Assembly: GCA_965199855.1 (NCBI GenBank)
Contig: OZ241326.1
Location: forward strand, 2,211,908 to 2,275,907
From: a bacterium
Lineage (GTDB): Bacteria > UBA8248
Length of the DNA: 64,000 nt
Direction of reading: 5' to 3'
The notes under the pieces: generated by a model
Database searches by the model: none
The model's input: the letters and a program-made list of their open reading frames with translations, nothing else
Told to the model about the DNA's origin: nothing
Shown here: in pieces, positions 515 through 57,829 of the stretch
How the letters are laid out: each line of letters begins with the position of its first letter
How positions within the stretch are numbered: position 1 is the first letter of the stretch
Made by a program: the position numbers and the translations under genes

Positions 515-4133
<3,619 letters not shown>

Positions 4134-4259
4134 TCGATATTTCGATTGGGTTGTTGTTCTTTGATACGCCGCTATAATCGGATCGAGCCGATCCTCCAGC
4201 TCGCTTCGGCTGACCAGAAACGCCTTGTTTTCATCGCAGGACCGGCGAAGATTGAAGCC

Positions 4260-6392
4260 TCATGTCCCTCCCGCCTCGACGGCTTCAATGAAGCGGGCGA
4301 GCTCCTCGCCGATGCCTTCCAGCTCGTTATTGTCTGTCGGTCTCCCCGCGGCGTCATAGCCGATATCCCCGGCTACCGCCATGAATACCGGAGAATCGCC
4401 CAATACGCTTCGCTTTCGCTCCGCATATTCCCGCTCCATGGTTTCCCGGAGCGCATCGATTTTTCCCCGGCATTCGGCGCCGACCCGCTTTTTCCATTCC
4501 CTATAGTCTTCGGACAGGCTCAACGCTTTGCCTTCCAGCCCTTCCGGATTGTCAAAGCCTCTGAGTTCCTTGATCCGCCGCTTCTTCTCCGCGTCAATCT
4601 CCCGCAACTGCTCCGGAAAATCATGCTCTTCCCTGATTTCGTCCCGTATCTCCGCTTTCCGGTTGCGGATCTCGGCGGTTGCTTCCGAAGTCCGCTTTTT
4701 CAGGAACAGCACCGAGGTTTTCACCCCCGCCCCTTTCGCCTGAAACGCGGTTTGGGGCATGGACGCCACCGCCACGAGGCGGAAATTCTCCTCCATGCCC
4801 TCCCGCGCGTATTGGAGGCTGGAGTTGGTCAGGATGCCGTCGGGTATGACGATCGCCAGATAGCCTCCCTCGGCGAGAAACCTGTGGCATTGCTCGATAA
4901 ACAGAATTTCGGAGCTCTGGCTGTCCCGGACTGTTTCCTTGCTCTTCGGGTTCAGCCAGTCGGCTTTCTTGAGCGCGTAATCGTAGTGGCGCATGTAGGC
5001 TTGCTCGGTTCGCTTGATCTGGGAGCCGAACGGCGGATTCGTGATGATGAAGTGGAAGCGTCCGTAAACGAATCCGTTGTTTCTCGTGAGAGAAAAAATA
5101 TCGTCAGCGGACATCAGCCCGTCGGCGGCGATCACGTTCGTATGGCCGTCATCGTGGAGAATCATGTTCATCTTGGCGGTTCTGGCGATTCGATCGTTGA
5201 TTTCGATGCCGAATATGTTTTTTTCCGCGAAGCTGCGCCAGTGCCTGTCATAGTCTCTTGATTCCGCCAGATCTGCTTCAAAATTCGGATAGTATTCACT
5301 CGCCTGCCGCCTGACCTTGTCAAGCGCGTGAAGCAGAAACCCGCCGCTGCCGCAGGAGGTATCCAGAACCAGCGAGTCATTGGTTATCGGCAGCGCGTCC
5401 ACGATGAACTTCACGATGGGGCGAGGGGTGAAGAACTGCCCGAACTCTCCACGAAAATAAGAACCCATGAAAGTTTCAAAGGCCTTGCCCCTGCTGTCCA
5501 GATCGGTTTTTCCAAAATCGACGCCTTCCAGATAGCCGACGACGGTGCGCAACTTTTCGCAGCCGAGGCGAATATCCTCCTGAAAGACTTCGGGGTCTTT
5601 TTGCCGCCCCTCGGCATACAGGGCGCGGACGCGCTTTTGCAGTCCCTTGTTCGTCTTGTCTTCCGTGCTTTCGGTGAACACCTGAAAATCGTAGGGTTCC
5701 CCCTTTCTCCTGGGCTTTTTCTCGTCCCACATTTTGCAGAAAATCAGCTTGTTCAACTCGTCGAAGGCTAGCGAGGGGTCGAGTTGCCCACCCCCCCAAA
5801 GCGCCTGATGCGCCTGTCTGAACCTTCTCGTCAGCGCGTCTTCCGTTATGGCTTCGAGCTCGAACAGCCTTTGTCCGTTGGCGGAACCCCCGCCCCGGGC
5901 GTATTTGAACCTGGCGAGCCGGCTGACGCCGTATTGCGGGATATCGGGAATGGGCAAGCGCTTCTTCGGCTCTTTTTCGGGAATCTCGAAGCAGGCGTCT
6001 TTTATTCGGGAGGTTACCCAGAAATACCTGGCCCGGACTGTTCCCGTGGCGGCGTAGCTGAAAGCCTGGGCGACGGCCTGCTCGAACTCGGCTTCGGAGA
6101 CGTCCTCCGCCTTGCACTCGACGACGATATGGGCGGATTCACGCTCATCGTCGTTATAGACGATAATATCCGCCTCTCTGGTGTCCGCGCCGATTTTTAC
6201 CGGAACGAACTGCTCTATGCGCTCCGGGGCGTAGCGATAAACCAGAACCAGTTTGAGGAACGTCTCCGCCTGGACGGACTCTTCCGGCCGCGCGTAATTT
6301 CGCCTCTTGCCCTGGCGAACGTAGGTGATGTATTTCCCGTCGTCATCAAACGCGATCAAGCCTTTGTCTATTCCTTCGCGCAACAGATCCAT
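4260..6392 (-). CDS. hsdM: N6-adenine DNA methyltransferase (HsdM-like) with N-terminal HsdR_N / PD-(D/E)XK-like domain
   Basis: 710 aa. Has SAM motif I VLDTSCGSGGFL and catalytic motif IV IITNPPFG. The extra ~170-aa N-terminus carries a D...E-x-K signature (EADIIVY...HIVVECK). Directly upstream of hsdS and in the same reading frame. AT-richer than the flanks. Confidence 0.85.
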   Translation of the reverse strand: MDLLREGIDKGLIAFDDDGKYITYVRQGKRRNYARPEESVQAETFLKLVLVYRYAPERIEQFVPVKIGADTREADIIVYNDDERESAHIVVECKAEDVSEAEFEQAVAQAFSYAATGTVRARYFWVTSRIKDACFEIPEKEPKKRLPIPDIPQYGVSRLARFKYARGGGSANGQRLFELEAITEDALTRRFRQAHQALWGGGQLDPSLAFDELNKLIFCKMWDEKKPRRKGEPYDFQVFTESTEDKTNKGLQKRVRALYAEGRQKDPEVFQEDIRLGCEKLRTVVGYLEGVDFGKTDLDSRGKAFETFMGSYFRGEFGQFFTPRPIVKFIVDALPITNDSLVLDTSCGSGGFLLHALDKVRRQASEYYPNFEADLAESRDYDRHWRSFAEKNIFGIEINDRIARTAKMNMILHDDGHTNVIAADGLMSADDIFSLTRNNGFVYGRFHFIITNPPFGSQIKRTEQAYMRHYDYALKKADWLNPKSKETVRDSQSSEILFIEQCHRFLAEGGYLAIVIPDGILTNSSLQYAREGMEENFRLVAVASMPQTAFQAKGAGVKTSVLFLKKRTSEATAEIRNRKAEIRDEIREEHDFPEQLREIDAEKKRRIKELRGFDNPEGLEGKALSLSEDYREWKKRVGAECRGKIDALRETMEREYAERKRSVLGDSPVFMAVAGDIGYDAAGRPTDNNELEGIGEELARFIEAVEAGGT

Positions 6393-11076: not shown

Positions 11077-11362
11077 GGCCGGGAAAAATCTCTCAGGGAA
11101 GGCGAATGGCGCGAATGCCGGAACCGCGTGACGTCAGCTGAAAGCACCGCCCCTCACCTTCGGTTCCCGCGCGGATGACGAAAAGCGACGCCGAAAGAGG
11201 CGCTGAACCCCCCGGCATCGGGCGAACACGCTATATCAGACTTCTCCGCGCCCGGTCAAATGGATTGCCCCCCGGGAACGCGCGGTGCTAGGATGCGCGA
11301 AGGGGCGCGCCTCGCTCACCCGCGCGCATTTCGCACCCGACGGAGCGGGATACCTTCAGCCC

Positions 11363-12760
11363 ATGCGTCGCCGCGGCCGAGACACCCTCATCCGCTTTTC
11401 CCTGCTGTCCGCCTTCGTCCTGTGCGCGCCGCCCGCGTCGGCGGAGAAGGAGCGCCCCTTCGGCGGACGCCTCATCATCGAAGCGGTCAGGAAGCTGCGG
11501 CCCTCCGTCGCGCATATCCGCGCGAAGCCGGGAGGCGCCGCGGCGAATCCCCTGCTCGACTTCTTCGGCAGGGGCAGGCGAAGGGAGGGCCCGCCCCGGT
11601 TCGATCAGGACGAGGCCGCCTACGGCGTAGGCGCGGGGATCATCGTCTCGAAAGAAGGGCACATCCTGACGAACCACCACGTCGTCAGGAACGCCCAGGA
11701 GATTCTGGTCAAACTCCACCGGGGCGAGGAATTCCCGGCCCGCCTGCTCGGCGTGGACGAGAAAACCGACCTCGCCCTCCTGAAGATCAAGCCTCCCGCG
11801 GACCTCCGGCCGGCAACTCTCGGCGATTCCGACAAAGCGGAGGTCGGCCAGTGGGTTCTGGCGATCGGCAGCCCTTTCGGCCTGGCGAATTCCGTATCCG
11901 TAGGCGTCATCAGCGGCAAGGAGCGGGATTTGAAGGAAGGCCCCTTTGACGAGTATCTCCAGACGGACGCCTCCATCAACCCGGGCAATTCCGGCGGGCC
12001 GCTCGCCGACGCGAAAGGCGCCGTCATCGGCGTCAACACGGCGATATTCTCCCGCGGCTCGCGCGCCTGGAGCCTGGGCGTCGGCTTCGCCATTCCGATA
12101 AACCAGGCCAGGGCCGTCATCGACTCCCTGCGCCACAGGGGCTATCCGATACGGGGCCGGCTGGGGGCGGCCGTGGCCGCCGTCCCCCCGAAGGAGGGGA
12201 AAGACCTGGGGCTGGCCCGCTCCCAGGGCGCGAAGCTCGCCGAGGTCGCGCGCGGCGGCCCCGCCCACCACGCCGGCCTGCGCCGGGGGGACGTGGTGGT
12301 CGAATTCGACGGCAAGCCGGTGAGCACCTGGCAGAGCCTTCCCCGCATCGTCGCCCGCGCGAAGCCGGATTCCCTCGTCCAGGTGAAGTTTTACCGCGAA
12401 AAGCGCCTGGAGAGCGTCTATGTCCGCCTGGGGAGCCGGCCCGAGGCGCCGCATTCCCGAAAGACGCCGGGCCGGACGAGCCTGGGCATGAAGGTCGAGG
12501 CGCTCACCCCGCACCTCGCCCGCCGCTTCGGGCTGGATTACGGCGAGAGCAAACTGGTGGTTTCCTCGATTCTGCGGGGCGGGGCGGCGGAGCGCGGCGG
12601 AATCAGGCCGGGCGACGAGATAGCGGAAGCGAACCACAAGCCCGTCCGGACGATAGAGGAGCTTCGGGAGGCCATCGACGCGTCCCGGCTCGACGGCTTC
12701 GTCCTCCTCCTTCTCAAGCGAAAAGGAACCAACCTCTTCGCCGCCCTCCAAATCAAATAG
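11363..12760 (+). CDS. periplasmic serine endoprotease, DegP/HtrA (Do) family
   Basis: ORF 11285..12760. I prefer ATG 11363 because it gives a signal peptide (MRRRGRDTLIRFSLLSAFVLCAPPASA). Catalytic triad contexts are HILTNHHVV, TDLALLKI and GNSGGPL, followed by two PDZ-like segments. Confidence 0.9.
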   Translation: MRRRGRDTLIRFSLLSAFVLCAPPASAEKERPFGGRLIIEAVRKLRPSVAHIRAKPGGAAANPLLDFFGRGRRREGPPRFDQDEAAYGVGAGIIVSKEGHILTNHHVVRNAQEILVKLHRGEEFPARLLGVDEKTDLALLKIKPPADLRPATLGDSDKAEVGQWVLAIGSPFGLANSVSVGVISGKERDLKEGPFDEYLQTDASINPGNSGGPLADAKGAVIGVNTAIFSRGSRAWSLGVGFAIPINQARAVIDSLRHRGYPIRGRLGAAVAAVPPKEGKDLGLARSQGAKLAEVARGGPAHHAGLRRGDVVVEFDGKPVSTWQSLPRIVARAKPDSLVQVKFYREKRLESVYVRLGSRPEAPHSRKTPGRTSLGMKVEALTPHLARRFGLDYGESKLVVSSILRGGAAERGGIRPGDEIAEANHKPVRTIEELREAIDASRLDGFVLLLLKRKGTNLFAALQIK

Positions 12761-12804
12761 CGCCTTCAGGACAGGCCCGGGCCGGCGCCCGCCGAACGGA
12801 CGGC

Positions 12805-13113
12805 TTTCGCAGGGACAACCCCCGTGGTTGTCCCTCGCCGCGTTCGCGTCCCGACGACGCGCAACCATCCCGTAGGGGGCGTTCGGGAACGCCCCGCCGC
12901 CGCCGATGCGAATCTTTCCTGAAAACGGGCGGCCCCGGGGCCCCGCCCTTGCGGAACCGGCGCCCATGGGCGACCCACCCAAACGGGCGGTTCCCGAATT
13001 GCGGGGCGGCCTCGGGGAGGGGTCGCCCCTACGGAACCGTCGCCATCTCCCGCCGTCATTCCGGCGAAGGCCGGAATCCAGGGGATTGTGATCGTTCCCC
13101 ATCGTCAATGAGA
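12805..13113. repeat. cluster of GC-rich REP-like hairpins (outside the large inverted repeat)
   Basis: Perfect short palindromes read directly: 12811-12835 AGGGACAACC-cccgt-GGTTGTCCCT; 12876-12895 GGGGCGTTC..GAACGCCCC; 13058-13077 ATTCCGGC-gaag-GCCGGAAT. Several are flanked by CGTAG/CTACG. No credible ORF. Confidence 0.7.
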
Positions 13114-13835
13114 GACAACCATAGGGGGTTGTTCCTGCGAAATGATGAAACCCGCGGCCCCATGCCGAAGGACGGGCGGGGCGCATGAATGCGCCCCCTA
13201 CGAAGGCGGGATCGCCGCCCGCCCCCGGAAAACCGGTTGCCTCGACCGTAGGGGACGCATTCATGCGTCCCGTTTCGATCGGTGGCCACGCGCGGGCGGT
13301 TCACGAACCGCCCCTACGGGAACCGTAGCCGCCCTCACCCATAGGGACGCCCCCCTGGGTCGCCCGACAATTCGGGAGCCGCCCGCGCGGGAAAATTCGC
13401 CGGGCGGAGGCGTTTCCCCGGGCGTTTGGAGAAGAACCGCCCGCTCGCCGAAAAGCCGCGCGTGAATGTCTACGAATTTCTGCAAAATCAGACAAATTCA
13501 CGGCCTTATCCCGCAAATAGAGAGCTGTTTTCCACCTTTTTAGAGACCCCTTTGACCATCCCGCCCGGTCCCCGATTCTTCCGTCTTCCTTCCCTCCGGA
13601 GGCGCAATTCCCCCACGCCGGAAATATAACCCGACCCGGCCGCCCCCGCGGAAGCGCAGATGCGCGCAAATGCGGGCAGGCGCGCGCGATTGTTCCACGT
13701 GGAACAATTCGGACGCGGAATTTTCGGAGGAAGCGTCCGGTTTTCGGCGCGGCCGCCGCTCCGCAAGCCTCGAAAAGGCGCGGTTCGCCCCGCCCGGCTC
13801 CGCTTTGCTGGCCATGCCCGCCGCCTACGCGCCGG
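13114..13835. repeat. left copy of 722-bp inverted repeat (non-coding; contains REP-like hairpins, an AT-richer core and parS)
   Basis: Reverse complement of 20005-20726. I checked both ends base by base and found one mismatch, at 13122/20718. Identical shadow peptides appear on opposite strands in the ORF track (13426..13629+ equals 20211..20414-; 13540..13815- equals 20025..20300+). Confidence 0.9.
13691..13706. other. parS-type ParB-binding palindrome TGTTCCACGTGGAACA
   Basis: Perfect 16-bp palindrome, extendable to 20 bp (13689-13708). Matches the parS consensus tGTTNCACGTGAAACa and is identical to the symmetric variant I recall from Pseudomonas parS sites. Confidence 0.7.
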
Positions 13836-13952
13836 GAGGCTTCCGTCCCGCGCGCGCCGCCTCCGCCTGATTGACATTCGGGCGTGGTGTCGTAATCTGC
13901 GGGGCGTTTCGGGGCTACACGGGAGCGGACGAACGGACGGCGGGGAGCGGAC

Positions 13953-14603
13953 ATGAAGATTTTCATCGATACGGCGAGTCTGGAGGAAATCGAGGAGGCG
14001 GCCTCCACCGGCATCCTGGACGGCGTGACGACGAACCCCTCGCTCATCGCGAAGGAAGGCGCCGACCACCACGCGAGAATCAGGGAAATCTGCGGGCTGG
14101 TGGACGGGCCGGTGAGCGCGGAGGTGATCGCCGTGAAGTGGGAGGAGATGGTCGAGGAGGGGCGGGCGCTGGCCGCCATCCACGAGAACGTGGTGGTGAA
14201 GGTTCCGGTGGGCGTGGAGGGGCTGCGCGCCGTCAAGGCGCTGCGCGAGGAGAGCGTCGACACGAACGTCACCCTCATCTTCAGCCCCGCCCAGGCCATG
14301 CTGGCGGCGAAGGCGGGCGCCTCGTTCGTGAGTCCCTTCGTGGGGCGGCTGGACGACGTCTCAAACCCCGGCATGGAGATGGTGAGCGACATCGCCCGGA
14401 TTTTTCACAACTACGACTACGCCGCCCAGGTTCTGGTGGCGAGCGTGCGCTCGCCGATTCACCTGCTCGAGGCGGCGAAGATGGGGGCGGACGCGGCGAC
14501 GGTTCCCTTTCAGGTCATCGCCCAGCTGCTCAAGCATCCGCTGACGGATATCGGGCTGGAGAAATTCCTGGCGGACTGGCGCCGCGCCGGCGAGATGCGC
14601 TGA
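13953..14603 (+). CDS. short-form transaldolase / fructose-6-phosphate aldolase family
   Basis: 216 aa. Contains [32 protein letters not shown] and [11 protein letters not shown]. Confidence 0.9.
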
Positions 14604-14625
14604 CTTTCAGGGAGGTTCAGGGATG

Positions 14626-14853
14626 ATGCCGATGTATGAATTTCTGTGCGGAAGCTGCGAGAAGGATTTTGAGAAAATCGTGGCGTCCGTCGAGGCCGCC
14701 GACCGCGTGGAGTGTCCCGAATGCGGCTCGCGCGAGGCGCGCCGGAAACTCTCCCTGTTCGCCAAATCCGCATCGGGCGCCGCGGCCCAGGCCTCGGCCT
14801 TCAGCGGCTACTCCGCCGGCGGCGGCTGCGGCGGGGCGTGCTCGTGCCACTAG
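14626..14853 (+). CDS. FmdB-family zinc-ribbon protein
   Basis: MPMYEFLCGSCEKDFE...VECPECGS gives a CxxC...CxxC ribbon, followed by an Ala/Gly/Cys-rich tail. The start could be 14623, 14626 or 14632. Confidence 0.75.
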   Translation: MPMYEFLCGSCEKDFEKIVASVEAADRVECPECGSREARRKLSLFAKSASGAAAQASAFSGYSAGGGCGGACSCH

Positions 14854-14937
14854 CCCCGCGGGGGCGCTGAATCCGCGCTTCCGCCGGGCCGATTCGCGCG
14901 CGATCCTTCGGGAATCTTTCAGCAGGGAGGAGAGACC

Positions 14938-16188
14938 ATGCCGCAAGAGGAGCAGGTCAGCGTCTTCGAGACCGCGAGCGCGCAGTTCGACGAGGCGGCG
15001 GCGCACGTCGATCTGGACGATGAGGTTCGCCACCTCCTCAAGACGCCCTTCCGCGAGGTGAAGGTAGAAATCCCCATCCGCAGGGACGACGGCTCTCTCG
15101 GCGTCTGGGAGGGATACCGCATCCAGTTCAACGGCGCGCGGGGGCCGTTCAAGGGCGGAATCCGCTACCACCACGAGGTGGACCCGGACGAGGTGCGCGG
15201 CCTCTCCGCGCTCATGGCGTGGAAGACGGCGCTCGTCAACATTCCGTTCGGGGGCGGCAAGGGCGGCATCTGCGTCAACGTGGGGGAGCTCAGCCGCTTC
15301 GAGCTGGAGCGGCTCACGAGAAAATACACCGCGCGCATCGGGCGCGTCCTGGGGCCCTACCGCGACATTCCCGCCCCCGACGTGAACACGAACGCGCAGG
15401 TGATGGCGTGGATTTTCGATGAATACAGCAGCCGCCACGGCTACGCGCCGGCCTGCGTCACGGGAAAGCCCGTGTCCATGGGCGGCTCCCCGGGGCGCGA
15501 GGCCGCCACCGGGCGGGGCGCCGTGATGGCGTTCGGGGAGGTCGCCAAAAAGGAGGGCTGGGAGCCCGCCACCATGACGGCGGCGATTCAGGGCTTCGGG
15601 AACGTGGGCGCCTTCGCCGCCAGGTTCATCGGCGATCTGGGGGTGAAGGTGGTGGCGATATCGGGCAGCCGGGGCGCCTGCTTCAACGGGGACGGCGTCG
15701 ACGTCGAGGCGGCCGCCGCCCACCGCAGGGAGCACGGGACGCTGGAGGGCCTCGCGGGAGCGGAGGAGATCACCAACGAGGAGCTTCTCGCCCTCGACGT
15801 GGACGTCCTGGTTCCGGCGGCTCTCGGCGGCGCGATTCACGCGGGCAACGCGGCGGACGTGAAGGCGCGCGTCATCGTGGAAGGGGCGAACGCTCCCGTA
15901 ACCGACCGGGGCGAGAAGACGCTGGCCGAGAGCGGCCGCGTCGTGGTGATACCCGACGTGCTGGCGAGCGCGGGCGGCGTCACGGTCTCCTACTTTGAAT
16001 GGGCGCAGAACATCCAGCAGTTCGCCTGGGACGAGGAGCGGGTGAACGCCGAGCTGGGCAGAATCATGGCGCGCGCCACGGCCGAGGTGCATGAGCTGGC
16101 GAAGGAGAAAGGCGTCTCGCTGCGCGCGGCGGCCTTCATCATCGCGATTGAAAGGGTGGCGGAGGCGGAGCGCCTTCGCGGCGTATAG
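14938..16188 (+). CDS. Glu/Leu/Phe/Val dehydrogenase (glutamate dehydrogenase-like)
   Basis: 416 aa. Contains KGGIRYHHEV, the catalytic Lys box IPFGGGKGGI and the GFGNVG dinucleotide fold. Confidence 0.9.
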   Translation: MPQEEQVSVFETASAQFDEAAAHVDLDDEVRHLLKTPFREVKVEIPIRRDDGSLGVWEGYRIQFNGARGPFKGGIRYHHEVDPDEVRGLSALMAWKTALVNIPFGGGKGGICVNVGELSRFELERLTRKYTARIGRVLGPYRDIPAPDVNTNAQVMAWIFDEYSSRHGYAPACVTGKPVSMGGSPGREAATGRGAVMAFGEVAKKEGWEPATMTAAIQGFGNVGAFAARFIGDLGVKVVAISGSRGACFNGDGVDVEAAAAHRREHGTLEGLAGAEEITNEELLALDVDVLVPAALGGAIHAGNAADVKARVIVEGANAPVTDRGEKTLAESGRVVVIPDVLASAGGVTVSYFEWAQNIQQFAWDEERVNAELGRIMARATAEVHELAKEKGVSLRAAAFIIAIERVAEAERLRGV

Positions 16189-16214
16189 CGTCCGCCGCCC
16201 CGCTGGAGCTTTCG

Positions 16215-17129
16215 TTGGCTGGTCTCGTCATAGACGCCCGGGGCATCGAAAAATCCTTCGGAACCCTCCGGGCCGTCGCCGGCGTCTCGCTCCAGGTGGA
16301 GCCCGGAGAGTGCTTCGGCATTCTGGGCCCCAACGGCGCGGGCAAAACCACGACAATCAAGATGCTGCACGGCGCCGTTCAGCCCGACGCGGGCGTCCTG
16401 CGGGTGCTCGGCCTCGACGTGGCGACCCAGAGCCGGCTCGTTCGGGAGGGGATGGGCGTCGTATCGCAGGAGGACACGCTGGACCGCGATTTGACGGTAT
16501 ATGAGAACCTCTGGGTCTATGCGGGATTTTTCGGCATCTCGAGGAAGGCGTCGCTCTCCCGCATCGAGCATCTGCTCGACTTCCTGCAGCTTCGGGAAAA
16601 GTGGGACTCGAAGATCAAGACCCTCTCGGGCGGAATGAAGCGCCGCCTCCACATCGCGCGCGCCCTGATCCATGAGCCGAAGTTCCTGATTCTGGACGAA
16701 CCCACCACGGGCCTCGATCCGCAGGCGAGGCATCTCGTCTGGCGCAGGCTCCGGGAGCTCGGCGACCGGGGGCTGACCATTCTTCTCACCACCCATTACA
16801 TGGAAGAGGCGGCGCGGATGTGCGATCGCATCGGCATCATGGACGGGGGGAGATTTCTTCTCGAAGGCGCGCCGCAGGCGCTGGTGCGCGAACATGTGGG
16901 CGATGAGGCGTATGAACTCAAGGGCGGCGCGCCGCGGGAACTGCTCGACTCCCTGAAAAGCCTCCACGTCGGCGCCGAGGTCGCCGCGGACAGGCTGTAT
17001 CTCTACAGCCGCAACGGAGCGGGGCTGATGGAGCGCCTGATCGCCTCGGGGCGGAAGGATTTTCTGAGAAGGCCCGCGACCCTGGAGGATTTGTTCCTGC
17101 GGCTCACGGGCAGGGAATTGAGGGATTGA
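16215..17129 (+). CDS. ABC transporter ATP-binding protein (ABC-2 / DrrA-NodI-like)
   Basis: Walker A GPNGAGKTT, signature LSGGMKRR, Walker B FLILDEPTTGLD. TTG start as in the track. Confidence 0.9.
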   Translation: MAGLVIDARGIEKSFGTLRAVAGVSLQVEPGECFGILGPNGAGKTTTIKMLHGAVQPDAGVLRVLGLDVATQSRLVREGMGVVSQEDTLDRDLTVYENLWVYAGFFGISRKASLSRIEHLLDFLQLREKWDSKIKTLSGGMKRRLHIARALIHEPKFLILDEPTTGLDPQARHLVWRRLRELGDRGLTILLTTHYMEEAARMCDRIGIMDGGRFLLEGAPQALVREHVGDEAYELKGGAPRELLDSLKSLHVGAEVAADRLYLYSRNGAGLMERLIASGRKDFLRRPATLEDLFLRLTGRELRD

Positions 17130-17902
17130 CGCTCCTCCCCCAGGCTCCGAGCCGCCGCGCCCTCCGCGTCTGGGTTCGCCATCTGGTCTATTACCGCTCC
17201 TTCTATCTGGCGGAATGGGCGGGCAATCTGGGGGAGCACGTTCTGTGGCTCGTGGCGTTCGGCTACGGGCTGGGCAGGCTGGTGCCGAGCCTGGACGGCG
17301 TCTCATACGCGCAGTTCATCGGCCCCGGGCTGATGGTTTCCGTCGCGATGTGGAACGCGACGTATGAATCCACCTACGGCGCCTATTCGAGAATGCGGAT
17401 TCAGAACATCTACGAGTCCATGCTGATGGCCCCGCTCACGGTGGGCGACATCGTGCTGGGCGATCTTCTCTGGTGCGCGAGCCGCGCGCTGATCGGCTCG
17501 ACGCTGATGCTGCTCGTCCTGAGCCTGTTCGGGCTGGTCGGCTCGTGGTGGGCGGCGGCGATCCTTCCGGTTCTGTTCGTCGAGGCGGTGATGTTCGCGG
17601 CCCTGGGGCTGATCGCGACCTCGCTGGCGCCCAGCTTCTCGTTCTTCAACTTTTACTTCTCCGCCGTCGTCATGCCCATGTTTTTCTTCGCGGGCGCCCT
17701 GTTTCCCATCAAGGGCCTGCCGGCGTGGGTGGAGCGCATATCCGACGCCCTCCCGCTGACCCACGCCGTGAGAATCTCGCGCGGCCTGTTCCTTTACGGG
17801 CGGGTCGAGCATTTTCTCTGGCACTTTTCCTTCCTGCTCGGCTTCACGCTCCTGTTTCTCGCGGTCGCCTGCTTTCTGGTGGGCAGGCGCATGGCGGAAT
17901 GA
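17126..17902 (+). CDS. ABC-2 type transporter permease
   Basis: 258 aa with about six hydrophobic segments. 4-nt overlap with the ATPase gene. Confidence 0.85.
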   Translation: MTLLPQAPSRRALRVWVRHLVYYRSFYLAEWAGNLGEHVLWLVAFGYGLGRLVPSLDGVSYAQFIGPGLMVSVAMWNATYESTYGAYSRMRIQNIYESMLMAPLTVGDIVLGDLLWCASRALIGSTLMLLVLSLFGLVGSWWAAAILPVLFVEAVMFAALGLIATSLAPSFSFFNFYFSAVVMPMFFFAGALFPIKGLPAWVERISDALPLTHAVRISRGLFLYGRVEHFLWHFSFLLGFTLLFLAVACFLVGRRMAE

Positions 17903-18870
17903 GCGTGGGCGCCGCGGCGAAAATCCTGCATCCGCCGGAGCCGTTCCTGTTCCATGAGAGTCTGCTGCGCTTTCGCGCGTCGAGCGGGGAGCTCGTCAAT
18001 TCCTACGCGGACGGGGCGTATCGCAGGGTGGTGGAGACCGCCGCCGGCGCGCTGGTTCTCCTGGAGGCCAGGAGCGGGGAGGAGGGGCGAGGCGGCCCGA
18101 TTCGGCTTCAGATGACCGCCGAGGGACGGATGAGCGAATCGCTCCAAGGCGCGGGGCTGGACGCCATCAGGCACATTCTGGCTTTTGATCTCGATTTGAA
18201 GCCGTTTTACGGGATGGCGGGGCGCGACGCCGACCTGGCGCCGATTGCGAGGAAATTCAGGGGTCTCAGGCCGGTGCGCTACCCGAGCGCGTTCGAGGCG
18301 CTCGTTACGGCGATTACGGCGCAGCAGGTGAACCTGACCTTCGCCGGGACGATACGCGGGCGCATGGTGAAGCGATGGGGCGGAAAGCTGCGCGTCGGCG
18401 GACGGACGCGCTACGCCTTTCCGCGCCCGGAGCGCCTGGCGCGGGCGCGCGTCTCCACCCTGCGCGCCATGCAGTTCTCGGAGCGAAAGTCGGAATACGT
18501 GATTGGCGTGGCGCGCGCCGCCCTGGAAGGACGGCTGGACGAGGGCGAGCTGCGCGCTCTGCCCGTTGAGGAGGCGGTGGCCCGGCTCGCCGGAATACGG
18601 GGCGTGGGCCGCTGGACGGCGGAGCAGACGCTGTTTCGGGCGCTTGGCCGCGTGGAGGTTTTCCCCGGGGGCGACCTGGGGGTGCGGAAGGTCGTGGCGC
18701 GCTATTGCTTCGGAGAGGAGCGCGTGGACGAGGAGCGCGCGCGCGGGCGGGCGGACGCATGGCATCCCTGGGCTTCGCTGGCGACGACCTATCTGTTCGC
18801 CGCGTGGCGCGCGGGCGTTGCGCCCGCGGGCGAAGCGAAACGGCGCATCGGGAATCGGGCGCGCGGATGA
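17899..18870 (+). CDS. HhH-GPD DNA glycosylase (AlkA / 3-methyladenine glycosylase II-like)
   Basis: In-frame part of ORF 17473..18870. ATG 17899 overlaps the permease stop (ATGA). Helix-hairpin-helix LAGIRGVGRWTAEQTL and the Asp region FPGGDLGVRK are present. Confidence 0.8.
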   Translation: MSVGAAAKILHPPEPFLFHESLLRFRASSGELVNSYADGAYRRVVETAAGALVLLEARSGEEGRGGPIRLQMTAEGRMSESLQGAGLDAIRHILAFDLDLKPFYGMAGRDADLAPIARKFRGLRPVRYPSAFEALVTAITAQQVNLTFAGTIRGRMVKRWGGKLRVGGRTRYAFPRPERLARARVSTLRAMQFSERKSEYVIGVARAALEGRLDEGELRALPVEEAVARLAGIRGVGRWTAEQTLFRALGRVEVFPGGDLGVRKVVARYCFGEERVDEERARGRADAWHPWASLATTYLFAAWRAGVAPAGEAKRRIGNRARG

Positions 18871-20015
18871 GCGGCTTTCGGGCCTCCATCGAACGGCGGG
18901 AAGAAGAGCTGCTGGCGCCCTGCGCGGCGCGCAGCGCCGAGAGTCTCGGGCGAAGGCACCCGGAAGCCGAGCACGGGATGCGGACGGCGTTTCAGCGCGA
19001 TCGCGACCGGATCATCCACACGCAGGCCTTCCGGAGGCTTGAATACAAGACCCAGGTCTTCGTGAACCACGAAGGGGACCATTACCGGACGCGCCTGACG
19101 CACACCATAGAGGTGAGCCAGATCGCGCGCTCCATCGCCCGCGCGCTCTCCCTGAACGAAGACCTCGCCGAAGCGGTCGCGCTCGCGCACGATTTGGGCC
19201 ACCCCCCCTTCGGCCACGCCGGGGAGAAGGTTCTGGACGCCCTCATGGAGGAGCGCGGCGGGTTCGAGCACAACCTGCAGGCGCTGCGGATCGTCGAGGC
19301 GCTGGAGAGGCGCTACCCCGCCTTTCCGGGCCTGAACCTGACGTGGGAGACGCGCGAGGGAATCATCAAGTATCTGGATCGCTATGACGGCCCGATGCCC
19401 CGGGGGCTGACGAACGCGATCGCCCCCGGCCTGGAGGCCCAGGTGGTCGACGCGGCGGACGAGATCGCCTACAACAACCACGACCTGGACGACGGCCTCT
19501 CCTCCCGGCTGTTCGGCCTTGAAGACTTGCGGGACGCCCGCCTTTGGCGCGAACACCACGAAAACTCGAAGAAAGCCTTTCCCGAAGCTCCCCGGCGGGA
19601 GCGCAAGCACGACGTCATCCGCCGCATCATCAACGCGCAGGTTCAGGACATCATCGCGTCCGCGCGCGAGCGCGTTCGGCGCCGGGGGCTGCGCCGCATC
19701 TCGGACGTGCGGGAAGGCGGGCATGACGCGGTTGTCTTCAGCGAGGAGATGCGCGGGAAGAACGCCGAGCTCAAGCGCTTCCTGATGGAGCGGATGTACC
19801 GGAACGAGCGGGTGCTGAGACTGGAGGAAAGCGCCCGGGAAACGCTGAGCGGGCTGTTTCGCCTCTACGTCGCCGAGCCTCGCAGGATACCGGAGCACGC
19901 CCGCAGGCGCGAGGAAACGGACGGCCGGCATCGAATGGTCTGCGACTACGTCGCCGGCATGACGGACCGCTACGCCCTCCAGCAGCACGAGCGGTGGCTG
20001 GGCGCCGGCGCGTAG
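18867..20015 (+). CDS. dgt: dGTP triphosphohydrolase-family HD-domain protein
   Basis: In-frame part of ORF 18705..20015. ATG 18867 overlaps the alkA-like stop (ATGA). Contains RTRLTHTIEVSQIARSIA...ALAHDLGHPPFGH. The last 11 nt, including the stop, lie inside the right inverted repeat. Confidence 0.88.
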   Translation: MSGFRASIERREEELLAPCAARSAESLGRRHPEAEHGMRTAFQRDRDRIIHTQAFRRLEYKTQVFVNHEGDHYRTRLTHTIEVSQIARSIARALSLNEDLAEAVALAHDLGHPPFGHAGEKVLDALMEERGGFEHNLQALRIVEALERRYPAFPGLNLTWETREGIIKYLDRYDGPMPRGLTNAIAPGLEAQVVDAADEIAYNNHDLDDGLSSRLFGLEDLRDARLWREHHENSKKAFPEAPRRERKHDVIRRIINAQVQDIIASARERVRRRGLRRISDVREGGHDAVVFSEEMRGKNAELKRFLMERMYRNERVLRLEESARETLSGLFRLYVAEPRRIPEHARRREETDGRHRMVCDYVAGMTDRYALQQHERWLGAGA

Positions 20016-20726
20016 GCGGCGGGCATGGCCAGCAAAGCGGAGCCGGGCGGGGCGAACCGCGCCTTTTCGAGGCTTGCGGAGCGGCGGCCGCGCCGAAAAC
20101 CGGACGCTTCCTCCGAAAATTCCGCGTCCGAATTGTTCCACGTGGAACAATCGCGCGCGCCTGCCCGCATTTGCGCGCATCTGCGCTTCCGCGGGGGCGG
20201 CCGGGTCGGGTTATATTTCCGGCGTGGGGGAATTGCGCCTCCGGAGGGAAGGAAGACGGAAGAATCGGGGACCGGGCGGGATGGTCAAAGGGGTCTCTAA
20301 AAAGGTGGAAAACAGCTCTCTATTTGCGGGATAAGGCCGTGAATTTGTCTGATTTTGCAGAAATTCGTAGACATTCACGCGCGGCTTTTCGGCGAGCGGG
20401 CGGTTCTTCTCCAAACGCCCGGGGAAACGCCTCCGCCCGGCGAATTTTCCCGCGCGGGCGGCTCCCGAATTGTCGGGCGACCCAGGGGGGCGTCCCTATG
20501 GGTGAGGGCGGCTACGGTTCCCGTAGGGGCGGTTCGTGAACCGCCCGCGCGTGGCCACCGATCGAAACGGGACGCATGAATGCGTCCCCTACGGTCGAGG
20601 CAACCGGTTTTCCGGGGGCGGGCGGCGATCCCGCCTTCGTAGGGGGCGCATTCATGCGCCCCGCCCGTCCTTCGGCATGGGGCCGCGGGTTTCATCATTT
20701 CGCAGGAACAACCCCCTGTGGTTGTC
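20005..20726. repeat. right copy of 722-bp inverted repeat
   Basis: Reverse complement of 13114-13835 (see the left copy). Confidence 0.9.
20134..20149. other. parS-type ParB-binding palindrome TGTTCCACGTGGAACA (second copy)
   Basis: Same 16-mer as at 13691-13706, at the mirrored position within the right repeat copy. Confidence 0.7.
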
Positions 20727-20760
20727 CTTCGCCGCGTTCGCCAGTCCGGGCGTTTCCCCC

Positions 20761-21042
20761 TTACCCGAACCGCCCGGCATTCAGCCGCCAATAGACCTCC
20801 GTCCCCTTGAGCGCGGCGTTCTCTTTGGCGTGATGCCACGGCGTCTTGCCCTCTTTATCCTCCGCCGCGGGATCGGCTCCGGCGGCGAGCAACGCTTCCG
20901 CGACCGCGGGGGTTTTGCTGAACTTCGCCGCCGCCACATGCAGGGGCGTCCGTCCATCCTTGATCCGCGCGTTCGGGTTCGCCCCGGCGGCGAGCAAGCC
21001 TCCTCCGCCGCCCGCTCCCCCGCCGAAGAAGAAGTAAGGCAT
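20761..21042 (-). CDS. small ankyrin-repeat protein (possibly truncated)
   Basis: 93 aa with two ankyrin-like units (DGRTPLHVAAAKFSKTPAVAEALLAAGADPAAEDKEGKTPWHHA). The Gly-rich N-terminus starts in mid-repeat. Confidence 0.5.
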   Translation of the reverse strand: MPYFFFGGGAGGGGGLLAAGANPNARIKDGRTPLHVAAAKFSKTPAVAEALLAAGADPAAEDKEGKTPWHHAKENAALKGTEVYWRLNAGRFG

Positions 21043-29290: not shown

Positions 29291-29326
29291 AAAAAAAACG
29301 CCACGCCCCGGGGGGCATGGCGTTCG
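29291..29326 (-). terminator. intrinsic terminator of the pyrR leader (attenuator)
   Basis: On the minus-strand transcript the sequence reads ACGCCAUGCCCC-CC-GGGGCGUGGCGU followed by U8. This is a GC-rich stem with one G-U pair and then eight U. It sits about 40 nt upstream of the pyrR ATG. Confidence 0.7.
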
Positions 29327-29360
29327 GACGATGAGCGAAAAGACACCGGGCATCCGCGCT

Positions 29361-29398
29361 TCCTCCTTCGCCGCCTCACGGGACGGCATTAAAGGGGA
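29361..29398 (-). promoter_or_regulatory. PyrR-binding (anti-antiterminator) RNA hairpin
   Basis: The minus-strand transcript reads CCCCUUUAAUGCCGUCCCGUGAGGCGGCGAAGGAGG. The core UCCCGUGAGGC matches the PyrR loop consensus UCCAGAGAGGC at 9 of 11 positions. The flanking CCUUUAA...GAAGG lower stem fits the PyrR binding-site motif as I remember it. It lies directly upstream of the terminator. Confidence 0.6.
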
Positions 29399-29487
29399 AT
29401 CCCACGCTGTTCTCGTTCGGCGGCGGGCGCGCCGAGACTATTTGGCCGAACCTAGCAGTATTCTCCGCCGGGGGCAAGCGGAATTCC

Positions 29488-40666: not shown

Positions 40667-40696
40667 TTGACACGCAATCGCCGCAGGGTGGATCAT
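40667..40696 (+). promoter_or_regulatory. candidate sigma70-type promoter of the acd-acd-selenoprotein operon
   Basis: TTGACA (40667-40672), an 18-nt spacer, then GATCAT (40691-40696), about 50 nt upstream of ATG 40749. Pattern match only. Confidence 0.35.
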
Positions 40697-40748
40697 GGCG
40701 GGCGTCGAGCGCAACCATCATCCCAAACCAGCCTGCGGGAGCCGCGAG

Positions 40749-41921
40749 ATGAGCCTGCAAACCGAAGCCGCGCTTCAGTTCGACCTGGACGACACGCAAA
40801 AGATGCTTCGCCGGACGGTGCGGGAGCTCTCCGAGCGCCACATCGCCCCGCGCGCCGCCGAAATCGACGAGAACGAGGAATACCCCGAAGACATCTATCA
40901 GATGCAGAAGGAGCACGGCCTCCTCGGCATCTTCTTCCCCGAGGAATACGGCGGCGGCGGAATGGGCTTTCTGGGCGGCTGCGTCGCCATCGAGGAGATC
41001 GCGCGCTTCTGCTCGAACTCCCCGCTCTTCATCGTGCTCAACATGCTCTCGAGCCGCGTCATCGACCTGAGCGGCACGCCGGAGCAGAAGACGCATTATA
41101 TGACGGGCCTCGCCAGGGGCGAACTTCGGGGCTCCTACGCCCTCACGGAGCCCCACGCGGGCTCCGACGCCGGGAACATCCGCACGCGCGCCGTCCGGGA
41201 GGGCGAGGAGTGGGTCATCAACGGGACGAAATGCTTCTGCACGGGACCCGACAAGGCGGACTTCATCACCGTCGCCGCCAAGACCGACCCCGGCGCGGGC
41301 GCGCGGGGCATCACCTACTACGTCGTCCCCACGGACGCGCCCGGCTTCAGCATCGACAAGCACGAGCGCAAGATGGGGATGCGCGGCATCTCGACCTGCA
41401 TGCTGCGCTTCGACAGCGTGGCCGTGCCCCTCGAGAACCAGATCGGCGAGCTGAACCAGGGCTTCAGAACCGCGATGATCGGCTTCAACCAGATGCGGCC
41501 CGCCATCGGCGCGCGCGCGGTCGGCCTCGCCCAGGGGTGCCTCGACTACGCCGCGGGCTACGCGAAGGAGCGCGAGGCCTTCGGGAAGCCCATCGCCCGC
41601 CACCAGGCCGTCCAGTTCATGCTCGCCGACATGTTCATGGACATCGAGGCGTCGCGCCTGCTCGTCTATCGCGCCGCCTCGATGGTGGACGCCGGACAAA
41701 TCGGCAAGGAGAACGCCCGGTATTTCTCGACGGCCAAGACCTACGCGGCCGACATGGCGATGAAGTGCGCGATAGACGGCATCCAGGTGCTGGGCGGGGC
41801 GGGCTACATGAAGGATCACCCGCTCGAGCGCTTCATGCGCGACGCCAAGCAGATCCAGATCGTCGAGGGGACGAGCCAGATTCAGCGGATCATCATCGCC
41901 CGCAACCTGCTCGACCTCTAG
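40749..41921 (+). CDS. acyl-CoA dehydrogenase
   Basis: I prefer ATG 40749. Contains YALTEPHAGSDAG and GGAGYMKDHPLERFMRDAKQIQIVEGTSQIQR (catalytic Glu region). Confidence 0.92.
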   Translation: MSLQTEAALQFDLDDTQKMLRRTVRELSERHIAPRAAEIDENEEYPEDIYQMQKEHGLLGIFFPEEYGGGGMGFLGGCVAIEEIARFCSNSPLFIVLNMLSSRVIDLSGTPEQKTHYMTGLARGELRGSYALTEPHAGSDAGNIRTRAVREGEEWVINGTKCFCTGPDKADFITVAAKTDPGAGARGITYYVVPTDAPGFSIDKHERKMGMRGISTCMLRFDSVAVPLENQIGELNQGFRTAMIGFNQMRPAIGARAVGLAQGCLDYAAGYAKEREAFGKPIARHQAVQFMLADMFMDIEASRLLVYRAASMVDAGQIGKENARYFSTAKTYAADMAMKCAIDGIQVLGGAGYMKDHPLERFMRDAKQIQIVEGTSQIQRIIIARNLLDL

Positions 41922-41933
41922 GAGCGCGCGGAG

Positions 41934-43103
41934 GTGGGGCCGGGGGCGGAGCCGCCCGCCGCGTTCGGGCTGAGCCGGGCGCAGCGAGCGCTGGGAGAGA
42001 GGGTCTATGCGCTGAGCCGCCGCCGCGTCGCGCCCCGCGCCGCCGACATCGACGAAAGCGGGGAATACCCCGAGGATATTTTCCAGCTCCTGAAGTCCCG
42101 CGGCCTCCTCGGCCTCTACGTCCCCGAAGAATACGGCGGGGCGGGCCTCGGCGTCCTGGAGACGTGCGTCGCCATCGAGCAGATGGCGCGCTTCTGCTCG
42201 AACTCTCCCCTTTTCTTCTCCGTCCACCTGCTCGCCACCCGCGCCGTCGCCATAGGCGGAACCGGGGCGCAGAAGAGCGTCTGGCTCCGCGGCGTAGCCC
42301 GGGGCGAGCTGCGCCCCGCCTTCTCGCTCACCGAGCCGCACGCGGGCTCCGACGCCGCGAACATATCGGCGCGCGCGGCGCGGGAGGGGGACTCGTGGGT
42401 CATCAACGGCCAGAAGTGCTACTGCACCGGCGCGAGCGTCGCCGACTTCCTCACCGTGGCGGCGAAGACCGAGGCCGGGGCGGGGGCGCGCGGCGTCTCC
42501 TTCTTCATCGTTCCCAAGGGCGAATTCCGGGTGGGCCGCCGCGAGAGGAAGATGGGGATGCGGGGAATCCCCACCTGCGAGGTGTTTTTGGAGAACGCCC
42601 ACGTCCCCCTCGAAAACATCATCGGCGATCGGGCGACGGGCTTCAGAACCGCCATGCTCGGCTTCAACCAGGCGCGGCCCGCCATCGGCGCGCGCGCGGT
42701 CGGCCTCGCCCAGGGGTGCCTCGACCACGCCGCGGGCTACGCCAAGGAGCGCGAGGCCTTCGGGAAGCCCATCGCCCGCCATCAGGCCGTCCAGTTCATG
42801 CTCGCCGACATGTTCATGGACGTCGAGGCGTCGCGCCTGCTCGTTTACCGCGCCGCCTCGATGGTGGATAATGGGCGCTATCAAAAGGAGGACGCGCATT
42901 TCATCTGCGCCGCGAAGTGCTTCGCGTCCGACGCGGCCATGAAGGCGGCCGTGGACGCGGTTCAGACCCTGGGCGGGGCGGGCTATACGAGGGATCACCC
43001 GCTCGAGCGGTTTATGAGAGACGCCAAGCAGCTGCAAATCATCGAGGGGACGAACCAGATTCAGCGCATGGCGATCGCCCGGAATCTGCTGGGCCTGAAC
43101 TGA
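41934..43103 (+). CDS. acyl-CoA dehydrogenase (tandem paralog)
   Basis: 389 aa with a GTG start. Contains FSLTEPHAGSDAA and GGAGYTRDHPLERFMRDAKQLQIIEGTNQIQR. Long stretches are identical to the upstream paralog (REAFGKPIARHQAVQFMLADMFMD). Confidence 0.92.
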   Translation: MGPGAEPPAAFGLSRAQRALGERVYALSRRRVAPRAADIDESGEYPEDIFQLLKSRGLLGLYVPEEYGGAGLGVLETCVAIEQMARFCSNSPLFFSVHLLATRAVAIGGTGAQKSVWLRGVARGELRPAFSLTEPHAGSDAANISARAAREGDSWVINGQKCYCTGASVADFLTVAAKTEAGAGARGVSFFIVPKGEFRVGRRERKMGMRGIPTCEVFLENAHVPLENIIGDRATGFRTAMLGFNQARPAIGARAVGLAQGCLDHAAGYAKEREAFGKPIARHQAVQFMLADMFMDVEASRLLVYRAASMVDNGRYQKEDAHFICAAKCFASDAAMKAAVDAVQTLGGAGYTRDHPLERFMRDAKQLQIIEGTNQIQRMAIARNLLGLN

Positions 43104-55751: not shown

Positions 55752-56726
55752 TCAAGGCGTCAGATTCACCTTGCCCAGAAACTTTTCGCCCAGCAGAAGC
55801 TCGTGGGAATCGTTCGCCCGCTCCAGGGGAAGTTCCCGCCCGACGTGGGGCTTGACGGCGCCTCTCTCCAGCAGGGGACGCAGGCGCTTGAGGATGCCCG
55901 GGACGAGCGGATTCAGATTCCCCGAGGAGAGCGCGAGAATCCTGGCGTCGCGGCCCATGGCCGCCGGCAGGGAAATCGCCGCGTCGGGCCCCTTGCCCGT
56001 CCCCGTTCCGACGACGACGATTCGGCCGTTGACGGCGATGAGCTCCAGGTCCGCGGGCAGGTTCTCGCAGGCCGCGGTTTCGACGACCACGTCCGCGCCG
56101 CGTCCGGCACTCAGCTCCATGACGCGCCCGGGGACGCTCTCCTCCCTGTAGTTGACGACCGCCCCGGCGCCCGCCGCGAGGCAGAAATCCGCCTTCTCCT
56201 TCGAGCTCGCGGTGGCGAATACCCGGCAGCCCATCGCGCGCGCCAGCTGAATCGCCAGGTGGCCCACGCCGCCCGCGCCCCCCTGGACGAGGACGCAGTC
56301 GCCCGGCGCCGCCTCTCCCTTGACGACCAGGGCGTTCCAGGCCGTGAGAAGCGGGATGGGCAGGGCGGCGCCCTCGGCGAAGGACATCGCGTCCGGGAGC
56401 CTCCCCGTGGAGGCCGCGGACAGGAGCGCCTTCCCGGCGTATGCCCCCGTCAGGGCGCGGCCCCACACCCGATCCCCCGGGGCGAACGCATCGACGCCCT
56501 CGCCCACCGCCTCCACCTCGCCGGCTACGTCCGTCCCGCACGTGTAGGGCGGGCGCATCTCGCGGGCGCGCGGATGCTTCCCCGAACGAATGGCGATTTC
56601 CAGGGGATTCACCCCGGCGGCCGCCACGCGCGCGAGAATTTCGCCCGCGCCGGGCCGCGGCTCCTCCGCGTCTTCGAGAACCATGGGATGCTCAAGTCCG
56701 AACCGCGTCACCCGCACCGCCTTCAT
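55752..56726 (-). CDS. NADPH:quinone oxidoreductase (zeta-crystallin / MDR family)
   Basis: 324 aa. Starts MKAVRV, then GVNPLEIAIRSG and VLVQGGAGGVGHLAIQLARAMGCRVFAT. Confidence 0.85.
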   Translation of the reverse strand: MKAVRVTRFGLEHPMVLEDAEEPRPGAGEILARVAAAGVNPLEIAIRSGKHPRAREMRPPYTCGTDVAGEVEAVGEGVDAFAPGDRVWGRALTGAYAGKALLSAASTGRLPDAMSFAEGAALPIPLLTAWNALVVKGEAAPGDCVLVQGGAGGVGHLAIQLARAMGCRVFATASSKEKADFCLAAGAGAVVNYREESVPGRVMELSAGRGADVVVETAACENLPADLELIAVNGRIVVVGTGTGKGPDAAISLPAAMGRDARILALSSGNLNPLVPGILKRLRPLLERGAVKPHVGRELPLERANDSHELLLGEKFLGKVNLTP

Positions 56727-57733: not shown

Positions 57734-57829
57734 CAGCCGCTTCGCTCCTCCGTTCGGGAAATCGCCCCGCAAGCCGCCGGACGACAAAAGAGACCTGAAC
57801 CATATCCCATAACCGCGCGCGGGCGAAGC

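Follow-up and report, generated by a model that had tools for sequence, protein, structure and literature searches.

How a block of seven genes came to lie between two almost identical inverted repeats, and what has kept these repeats alike, is the question raised by a 64,000-nt stretch of contig OZ241326.1 from an uncultured Nitrospinota bacterium of the UBA8248 lineage (assembly GCA_965199855.1, positions 2,211,908 to 2,275,907 of the forward strand; this whole stretch is called the window below, and its coordinates are counted from its first nucleotide). The repeat arms, IR-L (13114-13835, plus strand) and IR-R (20005-20726, minus strand), are reverse complements of 722 nt each that match at 721 of 722 positions, as found by a repeat search and a base-by-base comparison. 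They enclose 6169 nt of single-copy sequence that carry a cassette running from the transaldolase gene tal to dgt. A sequence-only reading of the window had proposed this segment as a substrate for homologous inversion, and the comparison with other genomes bears this out, since the cassette lies opposite to its orientation in 22 related species and the two repeat copies of a conspecific genome form a reciprocal mosaic. We consider it probable that, long ago, the spacer ahead of tal was duplicated in inverted orientation, and that general homologous recombination has since acted between the two copies.

IR-L is found between htrA and tal, and IR-R between dgt and a small ankyrin-repeat gene (ank). 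The identity of the arms drops abruptly just beyond both repeat borders, and their lone mismatch, T at 13122 against C at 20718, is near the outer edge, where the sequence-only reading had placed it. A self-BLAST of the window placed the region in no other long repeat and found no third copy of it. The repeat looks non-coding, as had been supposed: coding-like GC content at third codon positions (GC3) was seen in no open reading frame (ORF) within it, the gene callers placed no genes in it in two conspecific assemblies (L001 and L183, described below), and Rfam searches of the repeat at gathering and E-value thresholds gave nothing credible or above noise. Hairpin units resembling repetitive extragenic palindromes (REP) make up its outer third, in agreement with the GC-rich outer hairpins reported earlier, and include a 98-nt hairpin of two inverted REP-like units at 13176-13273 (plus strand; -40.4 kcal/mol, z -5.1) that has its apex at about 13225-13230 and its mirror copy at 20567-20664. 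Each arm also carries one parS-type palindrome, TGTTCCACGTGGAACA, by exact sequence match (13691-13706 in IR-L and 20134-20149 in IR-R), again as the earlier reading had it.

To place the cassette in its genomic context, related loci were collected with a glutamate dehydrogenase (GDH) search, keeping one genome per species, which gave 22 loci (L011-L032) with 78-90% protein identity. The relatives that bear taxonomic labels are Nitrospinota metagenome-assembled genomes (MAGs), and several have isolate names of a form that we take to be that of sponge metagenome bins. All 22 share, on one strand, the order pyrC-carB-(DUF3465)-h86-(ank)-tal-Zn ribbon-gdh-ABC-ABC2-HhH-dgt, and downstream of dgt a convergent htrA followed by lepA, lepB, a GT9 gene and ksgA. 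The window reads lepB-lepA-htrA, then tal to dgt, then ank-h86-DUF3465-carB. Its flanks are those of the relatives and only the tal-dgt block is reversed, so the cassette is inverted with respect to a deeply conserved arrangement. No inverted repeat of at least 60 nt was present at the locus in any of the 22, and the synteny comparison that the sequence-only reading had recommended therefore returned neither a second copy nor the window's cassette orientation in a single relative. Base composition agrees weakly with the flip: coding-strand GC skew averages 0.078 in the cassette genes, 0.072 in minus-strand genes and 0.019 in the other plus-strand genes, the difference between the cassette and the other plus-strand genes being of marginal significance (Mann-Whitney p = 0.049).

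Contigs of the same species, found by exact-protein look-ups and sharing 97.6-99.7% identity, allowed the repeat to be followed across samples. Three assemblies are in long-read style, namely the window itself, which belongs to a 3.04-Mb contig; L183 (ERZ25070167), a contig of 3,033,334 bp about 99% identical to the window, whose name, ctg…_118.19x_c, follows a long-read-assembler style that marks circular contigs; and L200 (ERZ26167708), a low-coverage contig from a separate assembly. The most informative short-read sequence, L001 (also L177), is scaffold_1969 of the sponge sample SAMN12290236. Three further short-read contigs (L005-L007) of 6171-6173 nt match 13835-20004 and end exactly at both repeat borders, and others break off inside the repeat, in the ankyrin region or in the htrA spacer. 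The junction between dgt and the repeat was assembled independently in L001, L003, L004, L183 and L201, the last being a Logan contig from a lineage further removed. L186, from a sister species 87-88% identical to ours and obtained from the same sample series, runs for 17.5 kb straight through the locus and has no repeat. Because the conspecific contigs break at the borders while the repeat-free L186 assembles through, we take the repeat to be genuine, with two copies of it in many samples.

A mis-join, which the sequence-only reading had named among the findings that would undo its proposal, is ruled out by the independently assembled junctions together with the contigs that end at the borders. 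A broader version of this objection holds that the assembler made the second copy, its near-perfect identity or its orientation. It would account for the failure of the species' short-read assemblies to resolve the repeat, with contigs ending at its borders, for the differences inside the repeat between the window and the otherwise near-identical L200, and for the one scaffold that disagrees on orientation. However, both copies and all four junctions were assembled independently in several samples, and the orientation of the window is reproduced in L183 (118x, circular by name) and at the htrA-tal junction of L200. The 3.04-Mb contig of the window also passes through regions where all short-read assemblies break, and a collapsed consensus is not expected where long reads span the copies fully. 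We regard an artefact of this kind as very improbable.

The distribution of the repeat also dates it. The same junctions occur in L001 (97.6%) and in L183, and L201, whose cassette is 94.3% identical to that of the window, shares the junction on the dgt side and the WLGAGA tail, after which comes the repeat with its parS palindrome. The repeat is absent from the 87-88% lineage (L186, L011). Since it is present in L201 and absent in L186 and L011, the duplication is old, having arisen after the split at about 88% and before the split at about 94% identity. A Tal variant, P0015, belongs to a separate species of about 88% identity that has the ancestral order without the repeat and, having been assembled with the same pipeline, serves as an outgroup only. 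A scan of JGI metagenomes with Tal gave a best match of 76% identity and no conspecific contig. Neither the Ank protein of the window nor its HtrA protein (tried with V and with M as the first residue) is on record by exact look-up. Flank contigs were recovered through h86, LepA and a variant of DUF3465, but all of them end in the variable ankyrin region, the REP-rich htrA spacer or the outer repeat and hold no orientation information.

The junctions indicate where the second copy came from. In 12 relatives, Dgt ends in ERWLG plus one further residue, while in this species it ends in ERWLGAGA (the window and its closest strains) or ERWLGVGA (other lineages). The repeat begins within the last native dgt codon, and the extra two codons and the stop (20007-20015) are repeat sequence, the second copy having overwritten the native stop and turned WLGA* into WLGAGA*; IR-R thus holds the final 11 nt of dgt, CCGGCGCGTAG, as noted earlier. 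On the ank side, REP-a, a hairpin of 44 nt, crosses the border intact (20698-20741). An independent and intact REP-a copy, which defines the consensus of this unit, is located in the htrA spacer (12805-12847, plus strand), and a three-copy alignment revealed that the REP-a at the outer end of IR-L (13110-13142, plus strand) is truncated, its stem reduced from 9-10 bp to 6 bp at the duplication breakpoint. With x for the spacer that precedes the tal promoter and x' for its second copy, the altered dgt tail and the REP-a cut at the htrA side lead us to read the ank-x and x-tal borders as native and the dgt-x' and x'-htrA spacer borders as novel. In the window, IR-L accordingly has a native inner junction (with tal) and a novel outer one (with the htrA spacer), and IR-R a native outer junction (with ank) and a novel inner one (with dgt). 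The repeat would then be a local inverted duplication of x. The novel junctions have a microhomology of about 2 nt at most. A second copy absent from the relatives, and one native junction kept by each window copy, are the features of a breakpoint duplication.

The same junctions bear on a possible origin from mobile DNA, in which the arms would be copies derived from a miniature inverted-repeat transposable element (MITE) or an insertion sequence (IS), or would form a composite transposon with the cassette. The length of the unit, its non-coding character, its many REP hairpins, its absence at the locus of the relatives and its parS, which they lack there, would all suit a mobile element. Yet the unit has no transposase ORF, terminal inverted repeats of its own are not conspicuous among the repeats listed, the 64 kb contain just the two copies, and comparison of the repeat with plasmid, phage and viral-contig collections gave zero matches. 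In addition, each copy is continuous with native sequence at one end, where an element that had moved in should show two novel junctions, and the cassette is still in its ancestral chromosomal neighborhood. An origin of this type seems extremely improbable.

The sequence-only reading had attributed the near-perfect identity of the arms to recent duplication or ongoing gene conversion. Gene conversion stands, but recent duplication does not, in view of a duplication shared as far as the 94% lineage, of L183 copies that are about 86% identical, and of a 60-nt patch that distinguishes the window from L200. The two copies within the window are 99.86% identical, and the window repeat and those of L001 and L002 are 92.8-94.9% identical, with indels in addition. 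Identity within the genome of the window therefore exceeds identity between lineages, which is the pattern of concerted evolution. In L183, which has the gene order of the window, a middle stretch of the copies is unalignable. Its left copy (htrA-tal) has 26 differences from the window haplotype, all at repeat positions 9-111, and its right copy (dgt-ank) has 108, of which 100 lie at or past position 117 (left/right split, Fisher p = 5e-21). The changeover at repeat positions 112-116 coincides with the apex of the 98-nt hairpin. When the outer haplotypes are labeled O1 and O2 and the inner ones I1 and I2, both window copies are O1-I1, both L001 copies are O2-I2, the left copy of L183 and that of L200 are O2-I1, and the right copy of L183 is O1-I2, so that each outer haplotype is seen with each inner one and none of the four possible pairings is lacking among the copies. 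The reciprocal recombinant types of L183 would be the expected product of a single crossover between diverged inverted copies, and such a crossover necessarily inverts the segment that they enclose.

Non-reciprocal exchange has left its own marks. L200 differs from the window by one substitution in about 10 kb outside the repeat, and by seven substitutions plus clustered indels within 13164-13224 of IR-L (repeat positions 51-111). In this interval L200 carries O2 and the window reads as its right copy does; in the window it is, to judge from these sequences, a gene-conversion tract of about 60 nt. The T at repeat position 9 is private to the left copy of the window and is common to L200. L004 has the opposite distribution from L183, with I2 next to tal and an I1-like sequence next to dgt, and since crossovers cannot produce such a swap of sides, the inner haplotypes point to conversion here as well. 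In the window, L001 and L183, the outer ends stay with the flanks and the inner ends with the cassette. Taken as features of homologous inversion, long and similar copies, an opposite orientation in relatives, and exchange points that are situated inside the repeats and vary in position were all found.

What moves is delimited by a putative promoter. The candidate for the tal operon, TTGACA-16 nt-TAATCT (13871-13898, plus strand), is in the unique 117 bp upstream of tal, 36 nt inside the IR-L border, and travels with the cassette. A generic sigma-70 and terminator scan made no call, and the candidate was identified by conservation instead: in an alignment, TTGACA-16-TAATCT upstream of tal is kept in the window, in L001 and in 21 of the 22 relatives (TTGATC in L011). 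The variant TCATCT of the -10 part is also seen upstream of tal across L011-L032, and a purine-rich ribosome-binding site is conserved there. Because the promoter is 36 nt inside one border and the other breakpoint falls in the last native dgt codon, the moving unit begins a short way ahead of the operon's own promoter and closes with the final gene. Exactly one predicted transcription unit is inverted.

Inverted repeats that enclose a complete transcription unit, together with two orientations among assemblies, bring to mind a site-specific invertible element, that is, an inverton or phase-variation switch with a dedicated invertase. However, the repeats measure 722 bp, whereas invertase sites typically span tens of bp. 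A Pfam scan of ORFs that reach to about 20 kb on either side, together with most of the larger ones in the rest of the window, gave no recombinase, transposase, invertase or integrase, and to that extent the earlier statement that no recombinase gene is nearby was correct. Since the promoter is inside the invertible unit, flipping would not turn the operon on or off, which also counts against a switch of this type. The end points of exchange differ (112-116 in L183 and a patch at 51-111 in the comparison with L200), fitting homology-driven exchange, and three assemblies have a single orientation. We find a dedicated switch hardly tenable.

The duplication and recombination that we favor would have proceeded as follows. 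The spacer x, from the ankyrin gene to the tal promoter, would have been duplicated in inverted orientation, with x' placed at the point where dgt meets the htrA spacer. Recombination of the RecA type would then act on the long inverted copies; both this RecA dependence and the order of events are presumed here. A reciprocal exchange would flip the whole tal-dgt transcription unit, and a non-reciprocal one (gene conversion) would intermittently overwrite one copy with the other, having in the window just made them near-identical. The operon should stay expressed in either orientation, because its own promoter sits inside the unique segment. As a consequence of the flip, the operon, at first convergent with htrA, would run the same way as htrA and converge on the ank operon instead, and its orientation with respect to replication would be reversed.

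Among the conspecific assemblies, the window, L183 and L200 (at its htrA-repeat-tal junction) have the same orientation. L001, a 15-kb short-read scaffold with no Ns and, at 97.6%, the most divergent conspecific, reads ank-repeat-tal…dgt-repeat-htrA. This is the ancestral order plus both copies, which in L001 are identical at 727 positions of a 728-nt repeat. We lean toward accepting the L001 arrangement as real, either as a pre-inversion stage or as a re-inversion. These orientations are also relevant to a one-step origin, in which staggered breaks or a replication template switch would have created the inversion and the repeat together, one breakpoint covering the 722 bp ahead of the tal promoter and the second falling at the stop codon of dgt. 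On this view the inverted copies would be a scar of the inversion and homologous exchange a later event. The one native and one novel junction of each window copy, as in the inverted breakpoint duplications of Drosophila (PMC1885836), the microhomology of no more than about 2 nt at the novel junctions, and the inverted order in all three long-read-style assemblies would fit a single step. However, insertion of x' followed by a crossover flip predicts the same four junctions, and these cannot separate the two models. The short-read scaffold L001 has the ancestral order plus both copies, the four haplotype combinations require at least one exchange between copies under either model, and the unwinding of 722 bp for a staggered break would be mechanistically awkward (PMC1885836). 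A one-step origin appears unlikely to us, although it deserves to be kept in mind.

Several points weigh against an old duplication of the tal spacer with recombination between its copies. A BLAST of x against the loci of the 22 relatives gave matches limited to 86 nt next to tal and to short REP pieces. Because x otherwise shows no detectable similarity to the ank-tal spacers of the relatives, the native status of x depends entirely on the anatomy of the junctions. The relatives also have no parS at the syntenic locus (none in 22 of 22), and part of x could derive from elsewhere in the genome. The opposite orientation with both repeats comes from a single scaffold, L001, whose path is unverifiable from the sequence, since copies identical at all but one position may have been threaded arbitrarily by the assembler. 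All three long-read-style assemblies are in the window orientation and none shows switching within a population, and present-day switching of this kind would be an extrapolation from the differences between assemblies. The long-read nature of the window, L183 and L200 is itself deduced from contig size and naming, which for the window concerns the technology behind it. The reciprocal mosaic of L183 might in principle reflect two conversions with coinciding ends, or recombination between strains, and the GC skew that agrees with the flip has the marginal significance given above.

The parS-type palindromes deserve separate consideration. TGTTCCACGTGGAACA occurs once per repeat copy and nowhere else in the window, where 0.09 occurrences are expected by chance, and it fits the 16-bp parS consensus TGTTNCACGTGNAACA. 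It is the sequence of parS2/parS3 of Pseudomonas aeruginosa, which has been studied experimentally (PMC4368675), and differs by one base from the ParB-bound consensus of Myxococcus xanthus (PMC3899335). The palindrome is unchanged in all the repeat copies seen that cover its position. As a result, two putative ParB loading sites flank the operon, 6.4 kb apart. No parAB, dnaA or further parS was found within the 64-kb window. The likeness to the parS sites of ParABS systems is a 16-bp palindrome that is identical or nearly so, and the difference is that the syntenic locus of the 22 relatives is without it. The L201 contig ends exactly on its parS palindrome (6336-6351), probably because the assembler broke at a perfect palindrome. 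In that contig the palindrome is retained although the surrounding 111 nt are just 86% identical to the window.

The identities of the genes in and around the inverted unit were assigned with Pfam on the ORFs of the window and with gene calls in related contigs, and agree with the seven-gene content, all on the plus strand within the 6169 bp between the arms, that had been described. The cassette starts with tal, of the transaldolase / fructose-6-phosphate aldolase family (13953-14603, 117 nt from the end of IR-L to its ATG, a distance that was also confirmed). It is followed by an FmdB-type zinc-ribbon protein (Zn_ribbon_8, 14623-14853), the glutamate dehydrogenase gene gdh (14938-16188), an ABC transporter ATPase (16215-17129), an ABC-2 permease (17126-17902), an HhH-GPD (AlkA-like) DNA glycosylase (17899-18870, supported by both Pfam and the gene calls in related contigs) and a dgt-like HD phosphohydrolase with HD and HD_assoc domains (18867-20015). 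The genes are partly joined by ATGA overlaps, as reported before, at 17899 and 18867, and by a TTGA at 17126. On the left flank, htrA/degP (11285-12760, plus strand) was ancestrally convergent with dgt and is now co-directional with tal. On the right flank, the small ank gene (20761-21042, minus strand) preceded tal on the same strand in the ancestral order and now converges on dgt.

Both flanks of the locus are variable. From the htrA stop to IR-L there is a REP-rich spacer of 353 bp (12761-13113), while the spacer between dgt and htrA is about 100 bp in most relatives. REP-like units with the tail GCCCC(C)TACG are confined, within the window, to the repeat and this spacer, and the family of short GC-rich REP-like hairpins clusters at 12761-13310 and 20522-20741. 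Related REP-like pieces are dispersed in the variable ank-tal region of L012, L013, L016-L019 and L029, and in L030 the dgt-htrA spacer has grown to 1.2 kb with REP-like pieces (15397-15904). The ank gene varies in repeat number and length across conspecific assemblies (80-141 amino acids [aa]; L091, L093-L096), and its region is a frequent break point of short-read contigs. L183 (11862-13278) and some other contigs have at ank an extra insert of about 1.1 kb with a DUF6338 gene and an ORF of 45 aa.

Elsewhere in the window, a restriction-modification module on the minus strand (2841-6392), consisting of an N6_Mtase/Eco57I/HSDR_N protein and a specificity subunit, differs between strains; the specificity subunit measures 430 aa in the window, against 381 aa in L178 (6474-10001), and in L179 (5164-8037) it is fused into a protein of 957 aa. 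Two pairs of tandem paralogues were found, one of acyl-CoA dehydrogenases (40695-41921 and 41934-43103, 78% nucleotide identity) and one of zinc-type alcohol dehydrogenases (55752-56726 and 56759-57787, about 75% over 374 nt). Upstream of the pyrR-pyrB-pyrC-carA-carB run that leads toward the repeat locus there is a PyrR binding site (29291-29399, minus strand; RF00515, 56 bits).

Comparison with known systems suggests that the locus behaves like other non-allelic homologous inversions, which would make it instructive and mechanistically ordinary. The inverted repeats of plastids are 10-30 kb long. With them our locus has in common a long pair of repeats that flanks a single-copy segment, the correction of one copy by the other through conversion, and an exchange that reverses the segment (PMC7145664). 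Plastid repeats carry genes and the isomers are about equally frequent in each cell; the repeats described here are non-coding and 0.7 kb long, and their homogenization is intermittent, as evidenced by the 86% identity of the L183 copies. Bacterial inversions between long inverted repeats formed by rrn operons, IS or prophages include the unstable inversions of Staphylococcus aureus (PMC6778178) and the prophage-mediated rearrangements of Escherichia coli O157:H7 (PMC8743559). The shared traits are long inverted copies, the lack of a dedicated recombinase, exchange inside the repeats, and alternative orientations among close relatives. Our case differs in that the repeat is a 722-bp non-coding spacer, and in that the segment is 6.2 kb long, comprises exactly one operon and is not symmetric around the origin or terminus.

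Eukaryotic inversions offer two more parallels. In the 24-kb flip/flop region of Saccharomyces chromosome XIV, inverted gene copies are reported to sustain an inversion polymorphism and to be recurrently homogenized by conversion, which re-enables crossover (PMC9731477). That system is meiotic, its repeats are coding and both of its orientations are well documented, in contrast to the one scaffold that holds the second orientation here. The inversions of the Drosophila melanogaster group share with our locus a duplicate of single-copy breakpoint sequence, one native junction per copy and the absence of a transposable element (PMC1885836). Unlike the Drosophila duplicates, which simply decay, the copies here keep recombining, and the ancestral order has been reported together with both of them. 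In comparison with the staggered breaks invoked in Drosophila, a bacterial mechanism would need to be based on replication or repair.

The locus also holds two cautions. Near-perfect identity of repeats may reflect the recent homogenization of an old duplication, and short-read metagenome assemblies break at structures of this type or may thread them arbitrarily. For the bacterium itself, the locus would provide a natural example of an operon-scale inversion by a non-coding inverted duplication in an uncultured organism, with its stages spread over public assemblies: a repeat-free ancestral order, diverged mosaic copies, a fresh conversion patch and homogenized copies. If the parS palindromes are functional, it would amount to a duplicated centromere-like site outside its usual context and a possible natural experiment. 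A more speculative and rather doubtful extension, by analogy with plastids, is a two-state locus in the symbiont population, where a RecA-driven flip-flop between the parS-bearing repeats would maintain both orientations. If this were true, seven metabolic and DNA-repair genes would alternate between co-directional and head-on transcription with respect to replication, ParB would be loaded on both sides of them, and the intermittent homogenization of the repeats would act as a clock that re-arms the switch.

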